64,000 nucleotides of DNA from Bugula neritina. Taxonomy: Eukaryota; Animalia; Bryozoa. The stretch spans positions 25,295,504-25,359,503 of the forward strand of contig OZ037765.1 in assembly GCA_964035545.1 (NCBI GenBank), in the 5' to 3' direction. Below, piece by piece: positions 14,266 to 62,900 of this stretch; within the stretch, counting starts at the first letter, position 1; each line of letters begins with the position of its first letter. Below the pieces are notes generated by a model, which did not search any database, had not been told where the DNA came from, and saw nothing but the letters and a program-made list of their open reading frames with translations. The position numbers were made by a program, and so were the translations under genes.

Positions 14266-37590
<23,325 letters not shown>

Positions 37591-42877: not shown

Positions 42878-44828
42878 AGTCTACTGTTTCATAACCATTG
42901 ATCTCAACCAACTGTTTTATAGACATTTACTATTAAAATATCACTCAGCATATTGGCAGTTTTTTACATCAATTTTAAAAAATATTGAGCAGCTGTTGAT
43001 AAAATAGATACCTGCACATTTTGTTAGATAGCTGAAATATTATTGGCTTTTGATGAGCATGACTCATTTCAAAATTTGTCCAAGTGCCTGTTCAATGCCG
43101 AGGGAATTCAACAACTCGTAATTTATCTGAAGAATTCGATAGAAGCATGAATTAATCACTACTCTTGAAAAATTACGAAGCTCTTTAATATTCAGAATAA
43201 TTTTTGAAATGATATATAACTTTGTTGTCTTATAATCAATTTCTTTGCAATTCAATTTTAATTTGGTTTGCCATATGACAGTCTTACAGCTTATATTTTG
43301 TACATAGGTATAGTTCATTCATAATTTATAGCTGAGCATAATAATGCTGCTTATAATAAGTTTTTTACTACAATAAATTGTTTATTGCACTAAACTTAGG
43401 TTTAGGCAACCAAATCATAAAATAGACATTTTCACATATTACAAAGTGGGAGCAATTACTTGACTAGTTAATAATAGTTGATAACAATTATTTCATTTAT
43501 TTATTAATAACTATAGCTTTTAGAACTTCCCCCCCCCCCCAATTATGGCCATATACATGACAAAACCAGCGTTGACCTAAATAATTACAATTAAGGATCA
43601 TAGCTCCTAGTTTAGAGTTATGTAAGTTGATACATGCAACAATTGCAATATGTTTCTTCATAAGGCAGCTACTATAGGGGAAAACAATTTCATAGTGTTA
43701 AAAACTTGGCAAAGTAATATCAAAGCTTTTTATGCCTTCAAAATAGACTGAAAAATTTGAGCACTAGCTATCATACACCTATTTTAATCAATTATAAGAA
43801 CACTCATTGTTATTGAGTAAAGATATTAGGATTAACCACAGTAACTATAATAATAATATTATTATTATATTTGTAGCCTGTAGGTACTAGGTACCGTGCC
43901 TAAGCCTGCATATAATATATGAATAATAATATCATGAAATACCGGCGTTATAACATTATTATAATGCTGGTATTTCATGTTGGAGAGTTATCTCTCTAAT
44001 TGGAGGCTAGTGTGATTGGCTCCCCGCACACATTACTAATTGTTTCTATAAAGTTTCTGTAGAAGCTTCCTATTTCCGGTTTTCGCCCGACAGTACACCA
44101 GACTCAAAAATAAAACGGATTAATAATTGTTACATTTGCTGCAATTATAGTCAGCATTAAAAATCTATACACTTGTAGAATTTCTAGTTAGTTTGTGTTG
44201 ACTGCCCAGAGTCCACAAACTACCACATATAAATCTGGTTAGTATAATTATGAAGCTTTATGCAAATGTCTAACTAAACCTTTAACAATATGAATAACTT
44301 ATTAACTATAAGTATAACTATTACTATTACTACTATTAGTATTAGTATAACATTAACTGAGTTTCAGTTTAAGTTGAACTTAAAGTTCATCATAACTTCA
44401 TCATTGTCATTATAATTATTTTCATTAAATTTATTTCTTATGATTTAGATTTTAGACTATTAGTATTATTGTCAAATTTAATTAAATTTAATATTATTAT
44501 TATAATTATAACTATCATTATGATTAAATTTAAAATTTTAATATCAGTAGTTATGTTATTATTATAATCTAAACTACAGTCGCGATCATAATGATATTGA
44601 TAATGATAGTTTTTATGAAGGGTATTTATATTTTGGTTGATCTTCTAATAATAATAATAATAATAATAATTAATATTCATATTCATATTGCCTATGGTAT
44701 TTGGTTAACAATAGATTTATTGTAGTTATTATATATAAGGCATATATATTTATGGCTATTCAAGACCGCTTTGTATTTTTTACATGGTGGTTATTTTTTT
44801 TTGTTGGATGCGTTGGCATAAGTGTTAT

Positions 44829-45180
44829 TGTAGTAATTTGTGCAATTACTGAGCGTGAGTTATTTACTTGCGTATAGTTAGCTGGTTATTCTGTTATCAA
44901 TTACTAAGGTAGCTGTCGAGTAATTATATTTATTATCCACAATAAAGCATAAACCAAACATCACATCAAATTATCCTATACAAGAGTCAACTACTAACAC
45001 ATGTTACTACTACAAGCCTCCGCTTACAACAACGTGATATAATGTTAATAACCCGGGAAGTGTCACGTGAATCGGAAGCATATCTTCCGGAGCTGCTAAT
45101 TGGTTGCTACATAAGAGTCTAAGTATTCCAAGAGTAGGGAGAGGGCGATTCCTGTATTTGTACTTGCACTACTCACTACA
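44829..45180 (-). repeat. 3' LTR
   Basis: No differences from 49740-50091 seen on reading both copies. Confidence 0.96.
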
Positions 45181-45191
45181 CCGTCCCCCCC
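45181..45191 (-). promoter_or_regulatory. Polypurine tract (GGGGGGGACGG)
   Basis: Directly abuts the 3' LTR on the element strand. Confidence 0.85.
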
Positions 45192-45470
45192 AGCAGAAAG
45201 CCCTACTTTCTGATAACACAATAAAAAAACATAATGAAAAACCATACAATAATCCAAAAAGAAAAACATACATAAGTAAACCCACAAAGAGTAAGAAAAG
45301 AAATAGTTGAGCACGACAACGTTTACATTAGAAGACAACAGGGTGATCGATCACACACATCTAGTCAGCTATTAAGAGAGAGGGTGCTTACCAGCACGCG
45401 GGCCAATGTCGGAGCGCTCGTCACATTCCAAACGAGTATCGCTCAACGAAGGTGCCTACCCCAGGCATTC

Positions 45471-46237
45471 TCATTGGTTGGGCTCTGATTCTTGTAGCGA
45501 CCGTGCTCGGTGTCGAGCCTGTCGGGCACGTAGCCGCCTCTTCAATCGCCCCACTGAGTCCTTCAACTGGTATAGACCTGTCGTCGTATCCAGCAGGTCA
45601 GGGGCAAGTTGTGTGAACTCGGCTTGCAGTCTTAGAAGCCGCTCTTCTACGTTAGCCAGCTGGCTAGGCCTTGGTGGGGTTGTAGTGGTCTCCGTTAGAC
45701 GGGATATGGTTGTTTCTTCTACTTCTGGGGTGTTGCTAGGGTTGACGGGGGTAGGAGGAGGGCCCTGAACCATAGGGGACTTATGGCGGGCAGATAGTAG
45801 CAGTACGTGAAACCCTGACGTTAGTGCGGCCAGGGTGATAGCCTTCCTGATGACTGGCTTGATGGCATCCAGGTATAGGGGGAAACTGTCTTCATCAACA
45901 GTGTGGTTCTCTCCGGCGAAGCAGCTTAGCTTATGTACTGTCACGGGATACGGGTAGACGTCGTGGAACCCGCAGGGACAGAAGTGGAGTAGGAAATGGG
46001 CGTCTACATGTAAACGCAGGGAGCGGTGCGACGGGCACTCCTCAAAGCAGACCTGGCAGGTTCGGTGTGGTCCACTGGGTCCCCAGGCTTCTTCAATTCT
46101 CCTCTCTGTCGTGGGTGACACCCAACGGTGTCGTCGGCGGAGTACTACGGGTATGCCATTCTCCATTACAGGCTCTTCTTCCATAGACAGAGAGGTTGGC
46201 TGGTCCCGTGACCGGGAGGTGGTCACTCGAGTGTGAT
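45471..46237 (-). CDS. Retroelement ORF3: C2H2 + C2HC zinc fingers and C-terminal coiled coil (main exon of a probably spliced gene)
   Basis: CQVC-x12-H-x3-H, then CPC-x12-H-x3-C, a Pro/Thr-rich linker, a leucine-rich heptad region and the basic tail LKRRLRARQARHRAR. Preceded by the acceptor CTACTCTTTCAG| (AG at 46239-46238). First in-frame ATG within the exon is at 46184. Confidence 0.8.
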
Positions 46238-46546
46238 CTGAAAGAGTAGCAGTGTTAAAGATTATACACTGAGGCACCGTCGGCGTATACAGCCTGACCG
46301 GTACTCTGTTCAGTTACACTCGTGAGATTCAGGCTAATGAATAGTTGATGGAGAACACACTCGCTATGACAGATTATTTAAAATCAAAGTCGACGTGTAT
46401 TCCCACCACTGTTTATCATTATCGAATCTCCAGCTAGCTAGTGTAGCTAAGCTGACTGATGCAGTCTAGTTATCGTACCAAAAACATAATTAACTCACCC
46501 TTCGATCCAGAATAGTAAGACATTTTGGAATGAGAGTGGTAACTGA

Positions 46547-48805
46547 TTACTGTTTACTGGCACGTCTACTCTCGACTGCATCAACATAGGAAAAGACCGG
46601 ACAGCGTGGTTGTGAAACGTGACTAGGGCTTTTCACTTCCAGCGGATGAATCTCGTGTGAGATTCCGCCGAGGCAAAAGTTGAGATTCTCGTGGTGATCA
46701 CAACTCCCACGGCTCTTTGCCTGCTTTCCCATGCGAGGCCTCTCTAGACTTTTGTTACTGCCGCTTATACCGCGGTCACGTACACAGTCTCTGAGACACG
46801 CTGGAAGTTGCCTAGTGTGTGGTCCTGGTCCTATGTTGGTATCTCCTTGCGGAGCCCCTCCCACGGGGGGTTTTTGCACTTCCGGACCTGTTTCTGGTTC
46901 CGGAAGTGGTGATGATGGCAGGCTTGACGTTGGGGGCGGTGAGCGCACTTTCAAGGACGGAAGTGGCCTTTCTCGCCTCGCCAAGTCTTCCTGACGTGTC
47001 ATGGAGGTGTTTCCGGCCAGGTTGACAGTCTCCGCCTGCCGAGACCTTCTCGCACAATGCGTCTGCCGCCCCGCTTCACCAGGGAGACGGCTATGCTTGT
47101 TGGTCTGGCAGACTTTGCACCGTCTCACTCTGCGTCGGATATCCCGTTCCATGTTAGGCCAGTACCACCGGAGTTGTAGCTTAGTGACCACCCCTTGGAC
47201 TCCTCCGTGAGTCTCCTCGTGGGTGTCTTGTATCAACTTCCGGCGGATGGCAACTGGGCAGACAACCCTCTTCCTGGCTGGCTGTCTGCTGTTGGCGGCC
47301 AAGGTCATGGTTAGCAGACCATCTGGCCCGACCCGCAGAGAGCTCCAACGTTGACAGTACAGCCGTAACTCGGCGCATCCCTGTCGCCGTTGTGTACTAC
47401 TGGGTCGTCGCCCCTCCTGTTTCGCTCGGTACACGTCGGCTACCACCCCAGGAAGGCATTCCTGGAGCTTCGGCAGCTCCCTAACGTTACCAGCCCATAC
47501 AGGTTTGGCGCGGAGGCTCTGGGCAGCCTCCGGGGGCGTGTCAGCCCTCTGTTGGAGTAGCTGAGCAGGGGCGGTCCTCGCCGCCCGTGGTACCTCACGG
47601 CAGCCTGCTCTATTTAGGCGGGCTCCGTGGTCTGTGTGGCTGAACGCCTCACTGTACCCATGTGGCAACCTAGCCATAGCCTGGCGCTTCCCGTTGCCTG
47701 CGCAGCCACGCGTCCCTGAAGGAGGGGAGGCGTGGGTTGGGACGGTCCTCCGCCCTCGAGACGGGCTCTGCTGAGGACCTTCCGTCGTAGCTCCCGACGA
47801 CGGCCCAATGGCTTCCTCCTGGACAGGATGGAAGCGACCCAGCATGGATCTGGGTGGTAGGTCTACTGTCTCTGAGAAGGGGTTGACACACTGCACTGAG
47901 ATCTCTCCTTGCCCCGTGAGCCGGCTAAAACTACGGGCAAGTTGGACTCTCGAGTGCGTACTTTCGACAACTCCCAACTTAGAGGTTTGGCCACCGTCTA
48001 CCTTGCAGCGGACGGTAGCCCGGGAGTGGCCTGGTATAGTACAGCTCCGTACTACCTGCACTGCTCCCGCTAGAGGACGACCAAACTTATCGACACAAGC
48101 GAGCTCCTTGTCGCCCATGATCATCGCAGATTTACTGAAATCGATGCGACAACCGTGTCGTTGTAAGAATGGCATCCCGAGGATAGCATCCTCGTTGAGC
48201 TGCCCGACGATAAACGTCTCTTGGATGGCCTGGTTACGGATGTAACCAGTTAGCTCAATAATGCCGTAGAAGGGAATGCACGACCCGTCTGCCAGGGTGC
48301 CATGATCCCCCTCATACGGTGCCAACCCGTCCTTGACCTTAGCGCTGAGGGTGTCAAAGAACTGACGGCTAAGGAGGTTGGTGGTGCAGCCGGAGTCCAG
48401 GAGGAAGTTGGCAGGCTTGCCGGCTAGCTTCCCTGGTAGGAAGTAGCTACTTCCGTGTGGCTGCAATTGAGTGTGCCGTGGTTGCACCTCCCTCGCTGTG
48501 GGTCGAGGGGTCCACGGTTGGCGGCGACTATTGACCAGCTGCCGAGGTTGGGGCGGTACACCTTGCGGCGCTTGTACCGTTTCCCTCGCAGGCTCTGTGG
48601 TCAACCGTCTGCCGGCTCCGTGTTGGTGCCGGAGTGGCGTAGGGGACCCAGGCGGCGAGTGGCTTGAGCCTACTTGCCGCGGGGGTCGCCACTTCACAGC
48701 ATCTCCGCGCGGCGCCCAGCGGGGCGACAGACGCGCGGGCCTCCCTGGGTGATTCACAGACGGCCCGCAGGAGGTGGGAACATCTGCGGGCCGGGGTAGT
48801 TTAAC
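46547..48805 (-). CDS. Internally deleted pol: aspartic protease + integrase HHCC finger; no RT, RNase H or DDE core
   Basis: Open frame, -1 relative to gag. LLDSGCTTNLL (about 48400) and ILGMPFL protease motifs. HEETHGG...YWPNM...CKVC integrase zinc finger (about 47225-47108). No YxDD, RNase H or D,D35E motifs in the translation. Confidence 0.85.
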   Translation of the reverse strand, partial: VKLPRPADVPTSCGPSVNHPGRPARLSPRWAPRGDAVKWRPPRQVGSSHSPPGSPTPLRHQHGAGRRLTTEPARETVQAPQGVPPQPRQLVNSRRQPWTPRPTAREVQPRHTQLQPHGSSYFLPGKLAGKPANFLLDSGCTTNLLSRQFFDTLSAKVKDGLAPYEGDHGTLADGSCIPFYGIIELTGYIRNQAIQETFIVGQLNEDAILGMPFLQRHGCRIDFSKSAMIMGDKELACVDKFGRPLAGAVQVVRSCTIPGHSRATVRCKVDGGQTSKLGVVESTHSRVQLARSFSRLTGQGEISVQCVNPFSETVDLPPRSMLGRFHPVQEEAIGPSSGATTEGPQQSPSRGRRTVPTHASPPSGTRGCAGNGKRQAMARLPHGYSEAFSHTDHGARLNRAGCREVPRAARTAPAQLLQQRADTPPEAAQSLRAKPVWAGNVRELPKLQECLPGVVADVYRAKQEGRRPSSTQRRQGCAELRLYCQRWSSLRVGPDGLLTMTLAANSRQPARKRVVCPVAIRRKLIQDTHEETHGGVQGVVTKLQLRWYWPNMERDIRRRVRRCKVCQTNKHSRLPGEAGRQTHCARRSRQAETVNLAGNTSMTRQEDLARRERPLPSLKVRSPPPTSSLPSSPLPEPETGPEVQKPPVGGAPQGDTNIGPGPHTRQLPACLRDCVRDRGISGSNKSLERPRMGKQAKSRGSCDHHENLNFCLGGISHEIHPLEVKSPSHVSQPRCPVFSYVDAVESRRASKQ

Positions 48806-49704
48806 CCTGGTGGGAGCTGAGGGCAGTTTCTCTGGAAATGTCCTGGCCTTCCGCATTCCCAGCAGAAGTGGTGCCCCATGCCTGGTGATTGTACCTGCGG
48901 CCCGCAAGGCTCACGGGCAGTATCTACCTGGCTTGGGGAGGCTAATGTGGTGACCAGTTTATCTAGCATGTCAGTCATCTGTGAGATTTTTGACGCTAGT
49001 GACATCTGGTTCACACTAGCCACCGCGGAGGGTTCCGCATTTAATTCGGTGTGAGCAGTAGAGTGCTCCGTGGTCACCTGGCGGGAGGCCACGCGGTTGC
49101 GGTGCATATGAGTCGCCAAGAGGTAGGCTTCTCCCACCGCAAGTGCATCTTCGACTGTGGTGACTCCCCTCGCTTGGAGTTGATGGTGGAGCCCCAAGTC
49201 GTTGATAGACTGCACGAAGGCATCATAAGTATACCTCTCACGGTGTACCGGAGGCAGATCGCGGAATGCAATCTGCGCTAGTGGGTACACCGTGGCAGCG
49301 TGCTCTTCTAGTGACGTGTGAGGATCACGCCGCATCCTCTGTAGACGGGCCCGCGCATCTATGGGAGAGATGCCAAAACGGGCCCGCAGGGAAGCAAAGA
49401 TTCCGTCTATGTCAGGTCCCGCTCCGTACGGCTTAGCTTTGCCCGTCAGCGCCATCCTGAGCTTGAGCAGCGCCACCCTTGGCGGCCACTCTGAAATCTC
49501 CATCACATCTTGGAATATTTGGATAAACTGCTCCACTGCTTCTTCGCCTGCGAAGGTGGGCGCCTTCATCCGGTATCTGTCTTCACCATACTCTCTAAGA
49601 ATTCTCACTTCTTCATCTAACACCACTGGTTCCACAGGTATATCAACATTATCTCTCTCACCTTCATTCAGTGGAATGGGTAGCTCCGTGCCGTCTTCTG
49701 CCAT
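48754..49704 (-). CDS. gag: Gag (capsid + CCHC zinc knuckle)
   Basis: ATG at 49704 just after the PBS. Gypsy-type capsid region (KAPTFAGEEAVEQFI...LRMALTGKA). CWECGRPGHFQRNC knuckle. Confidence 0.92.
   Translation of the reverse strand: MAEDGTELPIPLNEGERDNVDIPVEPVVLDEEVRILREYGEDRYRMKAPTFAGEEAVEQFIQIFQDVMEISEWPPRVALLKLRMALTGKAKPYGAGPDIDGIFASLRARFGISPIDARARLQRMRRDPHTSLEEHAATVYPLAQIAFRDLPPVHRERYTYDAFVQSINDLGLHHQLQARGVTTVEDALAVGEAYLLATHMHRNRVASRQVTTEHSTAHTELNAEPSAVASVNQMSLASKISQMTDMLDKLVTTLASPSQVDTAREPCGPQVQSPGMGHHFCWECGRPGHFQRNCPQLPPGLNYPGPQMFPPPAGRL
48761..48805 (-). promoter_or_regulatory. Programmed -1 ribosomal frameshift signal
   Basis: G_TTA_AAC in the gag frame (48805-48799), 5-nt spacer, perfect 10-bp stem CGGCCCGCAG / CTGCGGGCCG with a 13-nt loop. 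Confidence 0.8.
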
Positions 49705-49720
49705 GACTGCTATACGCAAG

Positions 49721-49738
49721 ATCCCACTGCTGCCACCA
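49721..49738 (-). promoter_or_regulatory. Primer-binding site, tRNA-Leu type
   Basis: TGGTGGCAGCAGTGGGAT, 1 nt inside the 5' LTR; complementary to a tRNA-Leu-like 3' end ATCCCACTGCTGCCA-CCA. Confidence 0.85.
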
Positions 49739-49739
49739 C

Positions 49740-50091
49740 TGTAGTAATTTGTGCAATTACTGAGCGTGAGTTATTTACTTGCGTATAGTTAGCTGGTTAT
49801 TCTGTTATCAATTACTAAGGTAGCTGTCGAGTAATTATATTTATTATCCACAATAAAGCATAAACCAAACATCACATCAAATTATCCTATACAAGAGTCA
49901 ACTACTAACACATGTTACTACTACAAGCCTCCGCTTACAACAACGTGATATAATGTTAATAACCCGGGAAGTGTCACGTGAATCGGAAGCATATCTTCCG
50001 GAGCTGCTAATTGGTTGCTACATAAGAGTCTAAGTATTCCAAGAGTAGGGAGAGGGCGATTCCTGTATTTGTACTTGCACTACTCACTACA
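49740..50091 (-). repeat. 5' LTR
   Basis: 352 bp, TG...CA ends. Contains AATAAA on the element strand, TCACGTGA, and an inverted CGGAAG/CTTCCG pair. Confidence 0.96.
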
Positions 50092-50143
50092 TTATTCATT
50101 TATACCCAATTATATGTTATTTTTTAGTTGAACTCTTAATAAA

Positions 50144-52736
50144 ATGGCTACGCAATATCGTTTTGGAGTAGAACCAATTACCTGCCACGCCTGGAATAAA
50201 GAGCAAACGCGTAAGTATAGGCTAATTTTAGTGATGTAATTTTAATAAATTCTTTATGTTTATGGAAATATGTAAAAAGCTAAAATGGGCATGATAGTGT
50301 ATTATTAATTTGTATGTTTACAAACTGTGGTATTAATCACTATTATGATAATATATTGTGGCATTGTAGAACTTGCCTTGTCTCCTAATAATGATGAAGT
50401 TCATATTTATGGATTGAGTGGAGGTCAATGGGTGAAGCAGCACACTCTTTCTGAACATACTCAACGAGTGACTGGCATTGACTGGGCGCCTAAAAGTAAC
50501 AGGATTGTGACATGCGGAGTGGTGAGCTATCAGAATATTGTGATGCCTTGTCAGTAATTATCATTTTGTATGCGGTAAATCAATAATGTTATGCTATTTA
50601 TATAACAGGATAGAAACGCCTATGTGTGGACTTTCAATGGGACCAAATGGGAACCAGTGCTGGTTATTCTCAGAATCAACCGTGCTGCAACTTGCGTCAA
50701 ATGGTCTCCTGAAGAGAATAAGTTTGCTATAGGTATTGGTGGCTAATTGGTGTTTGTGGTGGAATTTATTCAACATTTCAAATAACATTTTTGTTAAATT
50801 GTGCATAGTGTGCTGGAGATGAATGTTTGTTAAAGTTTTGCAACATATAATTATAGCATTGGTAAAGGCATATAAAATGTAGTGATGCATCACCACCACA
50901 GCACATTATATTTTGTTACTAATAGGAAGTGGAGCTCGTCTCATTAGCGTCTGCTATTATGAGAGTGAAAACAACTGGTGGGTCTCAAAGCACATTAAGA
51001 AGCCCATCCGATCCACTGTGACCTGTTTGGACTGGCATCCTAACAATTATCTGCTGGCCTGTGGTTCTAGCGACTTCAAAACAAGGTTTGCTTTTTCTTC
51101 ACTTTTTAAAATCTTATTGCAGCTTTGTTGCATTTTGGTAATAATTATTACCTGCAATTTATTTCAGAGTTTACTCTGCGTACGTCAAGGAGATTGAGTC
51201 GAAACCCAGTGCCAATGAATGGGGCAGCAAACTTCCTTTTGCTGCTATGCTTGGCGAATATTCAAATGGTGGAGGTGTGTTTGCACTGTTATATAATCAG
51301 TTTGTATACATCTCAGTTTAGAATGTCCGTAGCGTAGCGTGCTTGCCTTTACGTGCATAGTTATGTAAGATCTTATGCAAGTGTTTGTTTCTATGTAGGC
51401 GGCTGGGTACATGCTGTCTGCTTTTCTTCAAGTGGAACCAAGTTGGCTTGGGTTGGTCACGATTCAAGTATATCTATCGTAGATGCAGCTAATGGCTTCA
51501 AGTATGTTGCACCAATATTGTTTGCTCAATCAAAGAGAGCAGCGCATTATAATTCTAACAGTATGATGTATTTTAAAAGTATTTTTATTAATTTCGTATT
51601 AATGAATGTTTTGCAGTATTTTGACTGCCAAGACAAGCTACTTACCCTTCACCAGCTGTTTGTGGGTTACTGAGAACAGTCTTGTGGTTGGTGGATATGA
51701 TAATCTACCTCTCCTCTTCAACTGCTCTAAAGGTTAATTCAAGTTTTACCTTTTTTAAATTATGAAAATGAATTCGAAAGGTGAGGAATTGAATTTGGCT
51801 TCAGTATTGAAGTGCACCATTTTACGATTCAAGATGTAAGAATTTCTATTAAGTGTGAATGTTTGTAGCGTACAATAAAAAATAATGCTACTCTTACCAG
51901 GTGCCATAAACTTTGTAAATAAACTTGACATTCCAAAGAAATCTGGTGGCGGCAGCATGTCAGCCATGAAGAGATTTCAGCAAATGGATACTCGCGGTCG
52001 AGACAGTGAGGACAGCAAAGTGGTGACTCTTCACCAGAATGCTATTAGGTATTAGAGATCTTGTTACTGTTCATACATCATAGTTTCTGTTCTAGTGTGT
52101 CCTACAAACACCATTTGTGTAGTGCTAATGGTGATCATAGTTATGGCTAGATTAGTAACCGTGTTGGTGTTATTGCAGGCAGCTAACTCTGCACAGTGGT
52201 AGCAAGAGCTCTTGTGCTAAATTTGCTTCCGGTGGCAATGATGGACAAATCCTTGTATGGGATATCAGAGTAAGTACTATATTTAAACTTTACTTTGCTG
52301 CTTGGCACATTTATGTAAGTTTAAGACTTTATATAAATTGTAACCAAAATAATCTCCTATACACTCACCCAAGGATATATTTTAATATTCGACAATACAA
52401 AAAGAAAATCATGATCTCTTTCCCAAAATTATTATTGAAGTATTCAACTTTTCATAATGCTGAGACACTTTTGCCCTCCTTTATCATATAATTTATTTTG
52501 AGTGCATACACCTTTATACAGTTAATTTTAAGCTTTCTGGTGTTGTAAAAAAATGCTTTGTGGTGTGTGTCAAGATACTACCATTCACTATGCCCATCTG
52601 CTCATTGATAAATTTGTCAAGTGTTTTTGTCACCATGAATACGTTTTATATAACTGTTCATAAAAGTTTCAAGTAATTCTTGCACAACTTGTTTTAGACT
52701 TTGGAAAGTCAGATCGCTGGGCTGACCATTTCATAG
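50144..52736 (+). CDS. ARPC1: Actin-related protein 2/3 complex subunit 1 (p41, WD40)
   Basis: [95 protein letters not shown]; last exon [16 protein letters not shown] introns. Confidence 0.95.
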
Positions 52737-53406
52737 ACAGATGGATATTAGAAGTTAAAACTTTTCATCTTATGCTAAGTGTAGTTTGCTTCAAAATCTA
52801 CTTGCTTGATTTTACCTTGCTACCTATAACTTGTTCACAGTGATAAATAATAATCAATATTTTTTTCTAATTCTATGTGTAGATTTTTACCGAATAGCTT
52901 ACTGTTAATTTCTTTTTAAATACATCTTATTATAATGATTGATAACACTTTTAAATGTGGATTCATGTATCAAGTCAAGTCACCCAGTTGTCAATTAATC
53001 AACATGCCTAACTGTAAAAAAATTTCATGAGTTTTAATGAAAAATAAGCATAGCAAAATTCAAACATGATTAATTCAAAATATGATACAATAATGGCGTA
53101 GTGATACCTTTCAAGTAAAAAAAACTTCATGGAACTGGATTGTGACTGTAAAAAGCTAAATCACCACAATTTACTACTGCAATGGCTAATAAATAAACTA
53201 TGGTATATTATCAAAATTAGTATAAGATTTATATCAATGTAAAGAAAGTTAAAATTCAACTGCTTTATCTAATATGCATTGATATTTGAAATATTTCTGG
53301 CAAATAATGGTTTTACTCTTGGCTAGAATTAGCATGATAAGTAAGGCATTAAACTTGTACTTTAGGTCACTAAAAGACATCCGCATCTATTCGAATAGAT
53401 ATTCAC

Positions 53407-56560
<3,154 letters not shown>

Positions 56561-56930
56561 TGTACTGCAAATAATAAATTTCTTTTGCTAGAGAAATTTC
56601 AACACGGAATATCTTAAGGAAAAACACACAATGCATGGTTATGCTAGCGCTATCCAACCACAACCCAACAGTAAGTTGCCCACACAAATGAAGAAAATTA
56701 TCATTATATTATATCATGTTTTATTAACAATAAGCCTCCAACATCAATAAAAAAATCTCACAACATTTACAACAATTATACCAATAAGATAATATTAAAT
56801 ATGATGATAGTAGAGAAAACTATTGACATTTTCACCATTTTGCTTACAAATAAAATTGGAACTATGATATTTTTACAACAAAAGATTGATAAATATTTAA
56901 TAGCTTTGAATAAATGTCAATAGTCAAAGC

Positions 56931-59900
56931 TTAGTTTGAGGTGTCTAATGGGTTGCCATCTGTAAGTAATTCTTGCAAAGCTGAACATGTTTGCTGAACT
57001 CTCTCCAATTCCGTCTTGCTCTTGATACCTACAAAGACATACTTATGTAAAGTTACAGAAATTTAAGATATTTACCCATTTACATAACTGTCGTAATAAG
57101 CAATGAAATCAACAGCTATTTCAAGACATCTAACATAACTAAAAATACACATTTTCATAAAATGAAATGCAAACTAATTGTTCATAAAATGCATTGACAA
57201 AAAGTTTAGCCAAAAATGAAGTAAAGGAACATTGGGCTCTAATGTTAGCGGAAAGTTCTCTTTACAGGAGAGATACACTCACAGTTGTTTTGTAGATCAA
57301 GATGCTTGAGACATGGCATGTTTAATAACCCTCTGCAGCAGACAATTTTGTTGTTTGAGAGACTAAGAGTAGTTAGCTTCTGAAGATGGTTTAAACCATC
57401 AGCATTGATCAAATCATTATTAGAGAGATTGAGTTCAGTAACAGCATACAGTAGATGAGTGTTGTAGCATCTGGTAAGGTGTTGGCTGCTCATGTCAACT
57501 TGTGGAGTGGATAACTCTGTTATGACTTCTTCCCAAATAAACTTACTTCCTGTAAATTTGATACCAGAAATCTTTACAAAATCACAAAAATATTCAACAG
57601 ATGCTTTCAATTCAATTAAATAAAAATATTCGAAAAGTTCTAATTGAACTCACTAATAATCATGAATTGAAATATAGACTTTATGCTATGTTGAGATATT
57701 ACTATGGCCAATAATGTATCATAACCTGACAATTATTGAAATAGTGGACACAATAAAAAATGTATCTTTGTAAAGAAGTTGTTACACCTTGCTGCCTTTA
57801 TCACTACATTGAAAATTTATATTATAACTATTGCATCAAAGTCTTAGTCTCAAATTCTTGTGTCAATTTCATGATAGAAAAGTTAGGTACCTGGTAGACA
57901 CTCTCAAAAGCATTAACAAATGAGAACCTAATGTCATGTGCTGAGAGTTTAATTTCTCAGACTGTGCACCAAAGTCAACAGCACTATCAGAAACAACTAA
58001 CATAGACAACTTTGATGTTGCTTCTATATTCAAACTGCTCATCAGAAATTTGCAAAACAGCAACAGATATTTATATAGAACTCTGTTACATAAAAGCCAC
58101 TAATAAGCACGTAGATTTCAATAATGAATCTTCTCAAAATTACTACATGAGAAAAAGCATCACAACCAGGCCAGTATGTCTAATTTTCAAAATAAAAAAC
58201 AGCAAGGGAAAACCTTACTTTGGTTTAAAGCTACATGTGGAGATACTTACGAAGATCACTGTAGTAGTTCCGTCTCAACGAATCAACTTCTTCAAGTTGT
58301 TTGAGATTAGACATTATTTCATTCTTAAATTTGTTAGGGTCGATAGATTTCATCAACCAAATTATTGTCAACAGAACCCCTACAGAACACGGAATTCAAA
58401 GTAAACCGTCAGTGTTTGCTTACTTTAATCTAGCCATAATCAGTAAAAGAACGAAATCTGTTAAAAATGCAACTCAAGAGTTTACCATCAAGACCAATTC
58501 TTTTCCCCAATTTTGTATTTTAAGCAAGTTTAGACAAATGTTAACCTTTTATCAACAGCATGTATGTGAGTCAGCAACAATACATTCAAAACAGATCCTA
58601 TATATTGCTTTTCATAACATTATTGGGATGCTATGTTTTCAGTCTTCTAGATGTTAGCACTACTGTGATAGCTTTATTGTTTGGTGTCTCATGAATTGAT
58701 TGTTTAATAGCATGTATGGAGTACTTTTGCAAATTCAGCATTAATGTGAAAAAGTTTGATCCTCAAAATGACAAGCCAATAAAAAGCTGAGCAAAATTTG
58801 TGTAATTAATATTCGAAACTAGGAGATTTAAAAGAATAACTCTCTTGAGAAAAATGGGTTTTGGAATGGCAGTTTTCAGATTTCGCTTGTTTCACTACGT
58901 GACTAAGCTCAGGCAGTAAGATATGGACAATAAAACTAAAAAAGCAGAGACAAGTGATTTTGGAAATGAGCTCCTATTTTCCTTTTTTGTCAATAAAAGT
59001 TAAGATAACATCCTCAGAATTTTGACTTAATAAACAGTCAAAGTTTTATTATTGTTAAATATTTCTATCCGATAGTAATTTTTTTATTATTAAAAGGTCT
59101 CTGACTTTCTGATTTGAATGAAGATAATTCTCTATCTTGTAAAAGTGTATTTACAATGCAAAATTCCAAACCAGGTATCATCTAAGAATCCTCTAACTTA
59201 AGCAAGAAACTAGTTGGAGGAAAGTTATTCTAAATTAGAGGAATTGTGTTTCTATTGTACAAATGGGTATCTTCAGAAAGCCTCAAGTTTTTTACTACAC
59301 TGCAGACACAATTATTTATAAAAACATAACCTTGGAATTATCATAATGAAAAGTGCATCTTTTACAAGAGTCACAATGAGAATACACCAACCAGTTGCCT
59401 TACATTTATTATCAGGCTCCAGTAAAAACAACTCTTGACAGCTATCCAACTCTTGCATTAGAAGGTCAGTAGTAGTGGCAGTTAACTCATGTCTGTCAAA
59501 AAAATAAAACAAAATAACGATATACTTGGTACGCATTTACATCTTGAAGCATTCTCAACCATATAACCAGGGCACAAGGCTTATCAATTTAGTGCTGTAG
59601 ATTAAAAAAAGATGGGCTAAGAATTTACACACCTGACAACTCAACACAGTTAAATAAAATTATGTATGTACTTTTTAAAAAAAAACAAGCTTTTTGTATC
59701 AGTGAAATAGTTGAAAGTGGCAAACCTGAAATACAGTTTCATGGACCTAGCTTGTGCATCTACAACGTCGTTTAAGGTAAACTGGTATTCCTTGAGTTTA
59801 TGCTTCACTTTAACACTAGTACATTTGTCTCCAGTCAGAGAGCACCACACCGGAGAGAATACTTCATTCGATGGAGAAAACCAACTGAAGGGCAAATCGA

Positions 59901-62900
59901 CAGAATCCGATGAGGTTGTTTCAGTGACCTGCAGATGAATTAATAGGTGCATAGCTGCTGATTTGAAGGGAGTGACTGCTACTGATACTGGTGTAGTTAG
60001 TAGATATTGTGTCGAATGCAGTTTTTTACACTTACTAATAACTGCTTACAAAAGCAGGCTATTTTATTTTCAAAAAAGACCATACACAACTGCTAAAGCT
60101 TACTTTTATGTTGAATATTATGTTTTCAACACTCCACAATTATCATTCAATTTAAATGAAATTAGAAAAGCACAATATTTTTTACAAAAATTGTATTCAA
60201 GAAACCAAAATATTCTTCAGTTACCGTCAACGAATTATTACTCACTTTCACAGGCATTGAGAAGGTTAAAACCATCAGACCTTTATCTGGTAGTTCGCCA
60301 ACATTGAGCAGCTCCAATGAATTCTCAACTGTGAAAATAAAGTCACTAGCGCTTCACAAGAATACCCTTTGAAGTGATCAAGTTACAATAAATATCAAGT
60401 ATAACAAGCTGTATGTTTTGTTCATGAGTTAAAGAACCTTACCTCGTCCAAGTAACCACCTGTGATAAAACCAAGCACTTTGGTCATTGGGATCTGTAAA
60501 GAAGGCATTTTGCACCAACTCCATTTCTGTAAAACATAAAATAATTAATATATAAAAATAACACAACAGAACATGTAAAATAATACTAAAATTCGTACAA
60601 CACTAAATCATATTATTATAGGAATGTGTTACTAAGAAGGCAAACTTTACTAGATAAACAACAGAGGTTGTATTATTGCAAAATGAGTATAAAATACAAT
60701 AGAGTATAGTAGTTATTTGCAACAACCTTCAAGCAGCGTTGACTGTTGAAGCCCAGAACTGTGATTAGTTTGTGCAGAAAAAAGTTGAGGAAGCAACTTG
60801 CTTCTATAATGCCACGATGAGTAATTGGAAAAGTTACTAGCAATCTTTTCAAATGTAAACTTGAGTTCATCTTCGGGTTTAACATTTGACTGCTTGATTA
60901 TAAATCGTCTGTAGTCCCAGCAATGAACTAAAAACACACATCATACTTTTTAGATTACATATCATAGAGAAAGCAAAAAAAGATTAGGGTCAATGCATAA
61001 GGAAACTTTCATGAGCTGTGGTCAGCAATAAAGTTTTGCACAGAGAGCAAAAATAAATTGAAAAAAACCTCGTAAAGGCCTGGCCACACGATCGTGAGAA
61101 TTACACGAAATCGTCTATTTGGCACGAAAAAACATTCGTACGAGAAAATTTGAGGGAATTCAAACGAAATCGTCATCGTTGGGTGTACACAACGATGACG
61201 ATGGACGAAAATTCACAATCGACGATAAGTGCCATTTGATTGGTCAATAGAATTTTAGCAACAGTGATTATTTCATTTCTACTACGTTTCTCTATTTGGC
61301 AATTTTCTGCTGCTTGTATCTCGTGCAAAACTCATTCACGGAATAATAAAAATGACTTGTTGCCATCAAAGTGGTATATATTAGGGGTATATATATATTA
61401 TACGCGCCAAATATTTATCACAAATTTCAAAAATAGCATAAATTAAGTAGTATTACTATGCCTATTTGCATCCAATTTACTAGTCTTGTATTTATAGCAA
61501 CTGTAATGTATTTTGCGTAAAATAGCTATTGCAAGCATTATTCAATTCATATTCACATTGTAATCACAGCGAAGCTTAAACTTTATAGCTTTGTATTTAC
61601 GTGCATGAGTGAGTTTTAAATTTTTTTTTAAATTTTATACGCATAAAAAGTGTGTTTGAAAACTTTACCAATAAACAAAACTAAAAAAAATGTACACATA
61701 AAATACCAAAAAAATAACAAAAATGGCAAAATTTTTCCTTTATAACTTATATAAACTTGCGGTATCAATCTCGGCATAATGACTTTTCGTCTAACGAGCG
61801 TGTGGCTGGTCAATACGAAAAGATAACTCACGAAAATCGTTACAAGAGTTTCGTGTGATTCTCACGATCGTGTGGCCAGGCCTTAAGAATGTTTTTTCGT
61901 GTCAAATAGACGATTTCGTGTGATTCTCACGATCGTGTGGCCAGGCCTGTACACCCAACGAAGACGATTTCGTTTGAATTCCCTCAAAATTCCTCGTAAG
62001 AATGTTTTTTTGTGTCAAATAGGCGATTCCGTGTGATTCTCACAATCGTGAGGCCAGGCCTTTAAGCAATCAAATATGCACATTTTTTTCATTAAATGGC
62101 AAATTTTGTTTTACAAAATTGCACTTCGTTACATTTTGCTCAATATAATGATTTTAACTTTTGCCTCAAAAAATATCTAAAACCCAGTCCAGTGTTGCAC
62201 TTACAATTTCGCTCATCATAGGAAAGAAAAGCATTGCATAGTGAAAGTTCTCTTTCCCAATCTGGCTTTGGAGTATGCGTCATTACATAACATCTGTGTT
62301 CCCAACTACCGTATGATTTGGGATTATATTTGAGACATTCTTCCAGAAATGTCAACTCATCAGAGAACAGTGCAAGAAGTTCATCTGAGCTCCTGGAAAT
62401 CCAACGTTTACATCAATTTTTATACAGATTAGACTGTTAAAAGCTATAATGAGCAAAAGAAATAACAGAGGCTAAACTTTACTCACACCTAAGTTAATTC
62501 TTCCATTTATTTAATTTTTGCAACAGCAAGTTATAAATTTGGCATCAAGTTTAGCATTTTCTATTTATAGCCAATATTATAGTAGTTAAATCGATACAAT
62601 ATTAGTACATTTTGCTAAGACATTTTGAGTATAATACTACAGTACAAAATTTTCATGGCAGAGTATCATAACTTACACAGATTTCTGTAAAAAATTAAAT
62701 ATCTCTTTCCTGTAATTCCACAAGGTGTATACATCTGGATTTTTGGAAAGCACGCCACTGGTGAGTTTGAGGGCTTCCACATCATATTCCCCAGCAGCTC
62801 TCTGTGTAACAACAAAATATAAATACAAAGACAAAACACTTGCGTCAACAAAGTATGAGCTGACTAAAAAACAATCATGATTTTGATGCACTAACCTTAG

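Follow-up and report, generated by a model that had tools for sequence, protein, structure and literature searches.

In a 64,000-nt stretch of the Bugula neritina genome (assembly GCA_964035545.1, contig OZ037765.1, positions 25,295,504-25,359,503; hereafter the window, in whose own numbering all positions are given), a Gypsy-type long terminal repeat (LTR) retrotransposon lacking reverse transcriptase (RT) carries a third open reading frame (ORF3), which can be reached from two splice donors through one acceptor. Both splices are very probably real. The reading that we favour, at about an even chance, is that ORF3 is a nuclear activator of its own element, with two sources of messenger: LTR-started RNA in which gag is spliced to ORF3, and an internal promoter whose transcript passes through a mini-exon. 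The evidence that carries it is the anatomy of the element, the exact loss of one intron in DNA, a gag-to-ORF3 join in one relative and the zinc-finger pattern of ORF3. The evidence for splicing consists of genome-type contigs and of relatives' protein records.

The element is encoded on the reverse strand. The initial annotation had placed a donor near the gag start (route a), a second one behind a mini-exon (route b) and a common acceptor in front of ORF3, and its coordinates, phases and lengths were all exact. Donor (a), GAAG/GTGAGA (the slash marks the splice point), is located at 49661 after 43 coding nt (first exon coding part, 49662-49704) in phase 1, and gives a product of 269 aa. Donor (b), GAAGG/GTGAGT, is located at 46498, 25 nt from the ATG at 46523 (mini-exon coding part, 46499-46523), also in phase 1, with a product of 263 aa. 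The exon behind the common acceptor, CTACTCTTTCAG/ATC, begins at 46237. Donors (a) and (b) ranked 1 and 2 of the 315 sense-strand GT sites, each agreeing at 8 of 9 positions with the donor consensus. The acceptor, described as strong, ranked 2 of 393 AG sites by a crude in-house score, and none of the other 11 best-scoring sites was accompanied, as it was, by a branch-point-like motif (TTAAC, 46258-46254). Intron (b), a GT..AG intron of 261 nt (46238-46498), was indeed AT-rich (GC 41% versus 56-60% in the flanking coding parts) and contained several stop codons in the ORF3 frame. The acceptor had also been said to need a phase-1 donor; such donors exist, but a strict need was overstated, since an in-frame ATG is present within ORF3 itself at 46184.

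Contigs of several runs were aligned to the window at 88% or 94% likeness; such contigs show presence, not absence. X4 and X6 represent one sample, and X2 and X3 come from two other studies. X1 has no library record; one of its contigs (11,042 nt, depth 122.3) spanned 50067-58400 without differences, and since it was flat over 8.3 kb of host exons and introns, X1 behaves as DNA. It is possibly the window's own source, and so not an independent witness for the element. At 94% likeness X1 gave two joints, one of which connected 46237 to 46499, skipping 261 nt with ends CT..AC on the forward strand. Copies exactly lacking an intron had been proposed as a check on splicing, and in this contig intron (b) was absent to the base. 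This exact skip of 46498-46238 in DNA-like data indicated that genomic copies without intron (b) exist; the joint is not present in the window itself. Its depth was 843, versus 122 for the single-locus flank (6.9 times), and X1 pieces identical to the window reached 34-51 times the flank depth; these depths are contig means and not copy numbers, so that the intron-less form would amount to a few copies among some dozens. The joint contig was too short to show LTR-bounded intron-less copies. An equal-length skip with three other letters was found in X4 and X6, which is compatible with loss of intron (b) without being proof of it. The unspliced form was seen in an X2 contig crossing donor (b) and in an X3 contig crossing the acceptor. 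Among relatives, P0002 (68% identity) starts with V-S-Y-V-F-G-T, as expected from reading through donor (b) into an intron roughly 265 nt long. The C-terminus of P0246, read in the overlapping frame, would allow both the ATG and the donor of the mini-exon. Intron (b) was also considered as a unique RNA element on account of its fold (z -4.3) and rejected, as four windows elsewhere had lower values and it is not an outlier.

Route (a) was found as a joined form in one relative. P0012 (261 aa, 65% identity in ORF3) begins with MAEEGTELPIPRNE, identical to the start of the window's Gag in 12 of 14 residues, and runs directly into DHTR; the join is in frame and falls at the predicted phase and residue. 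Its contig of 5,320 nt suggests that the source is genomic DNA. The residues E-G-E-R, which are the reading of GAAG/GTGAGAG, were kept in all three gag starts (3 of the 46 pol-search matches reached that far) although Gag identity was only 40-49% and the preceding residues varied in sequence and number. A third ORF spliced from a gag-start donor, a trait of env-bearing elements, is thus represented by the joined form in P0012 and by the kept donor codons. With T required at +2, the acceptor was reached by 36 of 125 ORF3 relatives (89 did not reach it). Residue -1 was S in 30, L in four, E in one (P0012) and V in one; residue 0 was D in 34 and G in two. The relatives' intron sequence 5' of the acceptor was read in another frame, as expected for non-coding DNA. 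Conservation of the splice sites could be followed at the protein level, where the E-G-E-R codons and the acceptor residues are kept; for the bases themselves, no loci of relatives for a DNA-level alignment came from metagenome contigs, viral contigs or prokaryote genomes. The route (a) joint was absent from the two X1 joints at 94% and from the 15 listed of 36 joints at 88%, in data that record presence only. The initial annotation had posed a subgenomic RNA and an internal intron as alternatives; the X1 joint, the P0012 join and the kept donor codons together favour both.

These two joins also bear on the alternative that the joints reflect plain deletions or chimeric assembly, with ORF3 as a passenger. 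At 88% likeness there were 36 joints, many of them imprecise, P0012 is a single record, and the short side of the intron (b) joint measures 29 letters. Against this, X1 had only two joints at 94%, one of them matching both predicted splice ends exactly, P0012 joins where predicted, and the zinc ligands of ORF3 are conserved at about 20% identity. We regard this explanation as very improbable.

The ORF3 main exon (45471-46237) encodes a predicted protein with a confidently modelled domain of two zinc fingers (about 46058-45918), a Pro-rich linker and a basic coiled coil (about 45662-45489). The first finger has the pattern C-x2-C-x12-H-x3-H (ligands C60, C63, H76 and H80) and is followed by a second, C-x-C-x12-H. 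Relatives numbered 134 in a near search and 125 in a deep one, and none of the 120 listed in the near search bore a name or a Pfam family. In alignments of 25 and 88 sequences the Cys/His ligands varied little or not at all, even where identity fell to about 20%. The ORF3 profile matched classical C2H2 fingers (best E 5e-6) and coiled coils; zf-C2H2_4 was recognized at E<=0.01 in 9 of 88 members, the window's ORF3 not being among them. The zinc-finger domain of 142 residues was modelled with pLDDT 93 and pTM 0.86. A fold search with the full ORF3 model gave no significant match, only generic coiled coils, and one with the domain model gave none either, the best Z of 3.9-4.0 including the Kaiso fingers (rmsd 3.5 over 59). 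The C-terminus forms a 58-residue helix comprising a Leu-rich coiled coil and an Arg-rich end. No longer fused form of ORF3 was present among candidates of 593-2000 aa, which is weak evidence. Distant relatives at about 20-30% identity (P0137, P0154, P0161, P0169, P0174 and others) retain both fingers of the domain, and many of them also have basic clusters and end in a coiled coil. ORF3 was also considered as an env gene, and this was ruled out by its soluble zinc-finger model and by the lack of a membrane segment: no transmembrane anchor was found in ORF3 (top 19-residue hydropathy 1.43), nor any Pfam match. Of the comparison with env genes made in the initial annotation, the splicing pattern accordingly fits and the protein does not.

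A self-regulatory role for ORF3 is probable, and two forms of it had to be weighed. Instead of activating the LTR, ORF3 could act after transcription, as CERV does in Caenorhabditis elegans or Rev in HIV, with both splices real and splicing occurring by default, the protein binding structured RNA in the retained part and exporting the unspliced form. The messenger of CERV itself is spliced and shares exons of the gag frame; the protein contains a cysteine loop as well as coiled coils, and genomic RNA export requires it (PMC10309623). The Arg-rich helix that ends ORF3 behind its Leu-rich coiled coil is in keeping with such a role. So is RNA folding: z was under -2 in 21 of 44 windows of the part removed by route (a), versus 0 of 21 exonic windows, where windows overlap and are not independent and four straddling ones were omitted. 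This removed region (46238-49661) was far more structured than exons and LTRs. The non-independence of the windows weakens the argument, intron (b) is not a structural outlier, default splicing would have no use for an additional start codon on a separate mini-exon, and the ORF3 profile resembles DNA-binding C2H2 proteins. A CERV-like export role is nearly as good as an LTR-activator role, and we hold it as a tentative alternative.

In the LTR-activator mechanism, part of the LTR-started RNA would remain unspliced to provide Gag, frameshifted Pol and packaging, as incomplete splicing would allow, and another part would be spliced by route (a) into ORF3 messenger. The mini-exon ATG is located 3.2 kb downstream of the start of gag and 23 nt past the stop of pol; at this distance it likely needs a transcript of its own, and it would be translated from a separate internal one. 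We lean towards an internal promoter upstream of the mini-exon, with a candidate start at TCAGTT (46541-46546), about 20 nt 5' of the ATG, which is initiator-like; the majority variant at 46543 still matches the consensus TCAKTY. Early ORF3 from this source would activate the LTR, as Tas does in foamy viruses; a separate, early source of the regulator is what an LTR activator of that kind would be expected to have. Full-length RNA that had lost intron (b) only would be copied back into the genome by the RT of a related element; use of donor (b) in full-length RNA followed by such copying would yield the intron-less copies.

Several points weigh against this mechanism. Conservation of the splice sites in relatives, being read from proteins, demonstrates compatibility with the sites and not the bases, and the route (a) join occurs in one of the 36 relatives that reach the junction. 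Route (b) depends on one contig per run, and its short side falls below the 31-letter bridging rule. The internal promoter candidate is a six-letter motif, and the LTR and the putative internal promoter share only two 8-mers. Zinc fingers also bind RNA and proteins. Finally, an internal Met is present in the window's ORF3 and in 45 of 55 scored relatives, so that the spliced N-termini may be dispensable. This last point leads to a further alternative, with a single promoter, in which route (a) is functional, donor (b) is used secondarily in genomic RNA or belongs to an LTR transcript of several exons, and the ribosome begins either at the ATG of gag or at the ORF3 Met (46184). In its favour, the X1 joint shows splicing and not translation, and a donor near the gag start is the common pattern (PMC12992720, PMC4402516). 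On the other side, the ATG and donor of the mini-exon share the ORF3 frame and agree with what is conserved in P0246 and P0002, and intron-less copies, having lost the branch point and pyrimidine tract of the acceptor, could make ORF3 only via route (b) or the internal Met. We consider a single promoter unlikely.

The initial annotation had further held that a retained intron implies complex-retrovirus control. This does not follow, because simple retroviruses keep introns too and intron (b) is lost in some copies. All retroviruses leave part of their RNA unspliced via inefficient splicing, the simple ones using a cis-acting export element (PMC3185809). Control of the complex type may yet hold on another ground, as ORF3 resembles a non-structural regulator made from spliced RNA.

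The element (44829-50091, 5,263 bp) is bounded by a 5' LTR (49740-50091) and a 3' LTR (44829-45180), both of 352 bp, with TG...CA ends and 100% identical, and flanked at both ends by a 4-bp target-site duplication, ATAA (44825-44828 and 50092-50095). A TGG-starting 18-mer one base behind the LTR (49721-49738) constitutes the primer binding site, presumably of the tRNA-Leu type, and a G-run adjoining the 3' LTR (45181-45190) the polypurine tract. The gag gene (48754-49704, 316 aa) encodes a CCHC knuckle (zf-CCHC, E 5e-5). The pol frame (46547-48910, 787 open codons) encodes an aspartic protease and an integrase H2C2 finger. Within the gag/pol overlap, GTTAAAC with a perfect 10-bp hairpin (48757-48808, hairpin z -3.85) is a candidate -1 frameshift site. 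LTRs, target duplication, primer binding site, polypurine tract, CCHC Gag and aspartic protease are thus all present, placing the element in Ty3/Gypsy; RT, RNase H and the integrase core, which an autonomous Ty3/Gypsy element requires, are missing from the window copy, the first two near 47560 and the core after about 47010. Identical LTRs and the target duplication show that the element is young. Contigs of X4 and X6 crossed the empty insertion site, so the insertion is recent and polymorphic.

The loss of RT is a trait of an old lineage and not a single-copy accident. The same pol gap was bridged with similar breakpoints in 10 of 14 relatives hand-picked among the 46 pol-search matches, three of the others running into RT and one being too short, and X4-X6 contigs bridged both pol gaps, adding no more than 61 and 87 letters there. 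This RT-less pol lineage has diverged to 50-65% identity with common breakpoints. Its protease and integrase finger may still be in use. An RT domain was found in 16 of the 46 pol matches, 10 of those at 53-67% identity, and these RT-bearing relatives are candidate helpers. The order protease-RT-RNase H-integrase was observed in P0255 and P0280 (63-64% identity), P0274, P0277 and P0281; for the complete relative P0277, the best solved-structure match was Ty3 (E 4e-119). Dozens of near-identical element copies were present in X1. Its second joint (48451-49725, depth 52.7) skips 1,273 nt, is not GT..AG, and represents an internally deleted copy that loses gag. X4-X6 share the organism label with X1, but contain mostly relatives at 90-95%, a different flank and no insertion at this site, a contrast that possibly reflects a recent burst in one lineage.

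On the host side, the gene for ARPC1 (Arp2/3 p41; 50144-52500, forward strand) lies head to head with the element, its ATG at 50144 being 52 bp from the end of the 5' LTR, so that the insertion falls within the ARPC1 promoter or 5' untranslated region. The surrounding DNA is gene-dense, AT-rich and animal. Host exons on the reverse strand (54172-55523, 57245-57649 and 25440-25826) have products that include a mu-crystallin/ornithine cyclodeaminase and an LRR protein; one, without a Pfam match, we take to be DNA polymerase epsilon-like. A tRNA-Asn gene occupies 21944-22017 (forward strand). An inverted repeat of 117 nt with 91% complementarity and further direct copies, at 61062-62064, is possibly a small DNA transposon.

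What sets "complex" retroelements apart, by definition, is a non-structural gene expressed by splicing, and self-encoded regulators mark complex retroviruses. Within the literature found, CERV is the only tested case of a self-encoded regulator in an animal LTR retrotransposon. In the literature search, no Gypsy element was described as having a third ORF with C2H2 fingers; Repbase, Dfam and supplements lay outside its scope, and may already list the family. ORF3 and its relatives form a zinc-finger family that is widespread, lacks annotation and occupies the position of env. What appears to be new, in that it did not emerge from the search, is that in a Gypsy lineage devoid of RT two first exons share one acceptor and feed a protein with C2H2 fingers. 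Since both splice routes are mapped and copies without the intron occur naturally, the balance of spliced and unspliced RNA, or self-switching, is directly testable with reporters.

Introns as such are known in Ogre and EVADE elements (PMC12786077); passages of PMC13524379 contained no pertinent material. Spliced third ORFs occur in errantiviruses as env (PMC12992720), of which no features were seen here, and non-env third ORFs occur in bdelloid rotifers (PMC5408684), the term "zinc" not being found for them in passages of that paper. The wheat element RLG_Quinta is likewise an old RT-less lineage with open reading frames beside autonomous kin (PMC11302176), but here protease, integrase finger and ORF3 are kept, not Gag alone. 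Tor elements of Oikopleura express a third ORF either through a gag-start donor, as in Tor3a, or, as in Tor3b/4b, through an internal promoter located behind pol (PMC4402516). Unlike here, that ORF encodes a membrane glycoprotein, each mode belongs to a different family and the internal transcripts are unspliced, whereas both routes coexist in the present element. Like ORF3, CERV of Cer1 is a non-env ORF at the env position of a Gypsy-class element, spliced from gag-frame exons and with a Cys finger and coiled coil (PMC10309623). Compared by description, CERV has 517 aa, five exons, a G-protein-like domain and a C4-type loop, whereas ORF3 has 263-269 aa and a pair of C2H2 fingers, and can also be joined to another first exon that is independent of gag.

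In its proposed logic the element resembles foamy viruses. In these an internal promoter is present and Tas activates the LTR (PMC3185809), and proviruses arise from spliced pregenome with loss of a 301 bp intron (PMC1224871). Homology between ORF3 and Tas was not detected, a comparison with predicted viral structures having yielded nothing at E<=0.001. The present element differs in being Gypsy-type without env, in that intron loss opens the mini-exon/ORF3 frame instead of breaking the regulator, and in that its promoter is a candidate only. Shared with foamy viruses are a 3' non-structural gene for a DNA-binding regulator (here predicted; PMC3185809) and genomic copies without the intron, 301 bp there and 261 bp here (PMC1224871). 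It is possible, though we put it forward only tentatively, that an animal Gypsy lineage independently evolved a foamy-virus-like logic, in which a self-encoded zinc-finger regulator is supplied first by an internal promoter with an intron of its own and afterwards by the LTR, while an old RT-less sister lineage retains this regulator, Gag and protease and offers them in exchange for RT.

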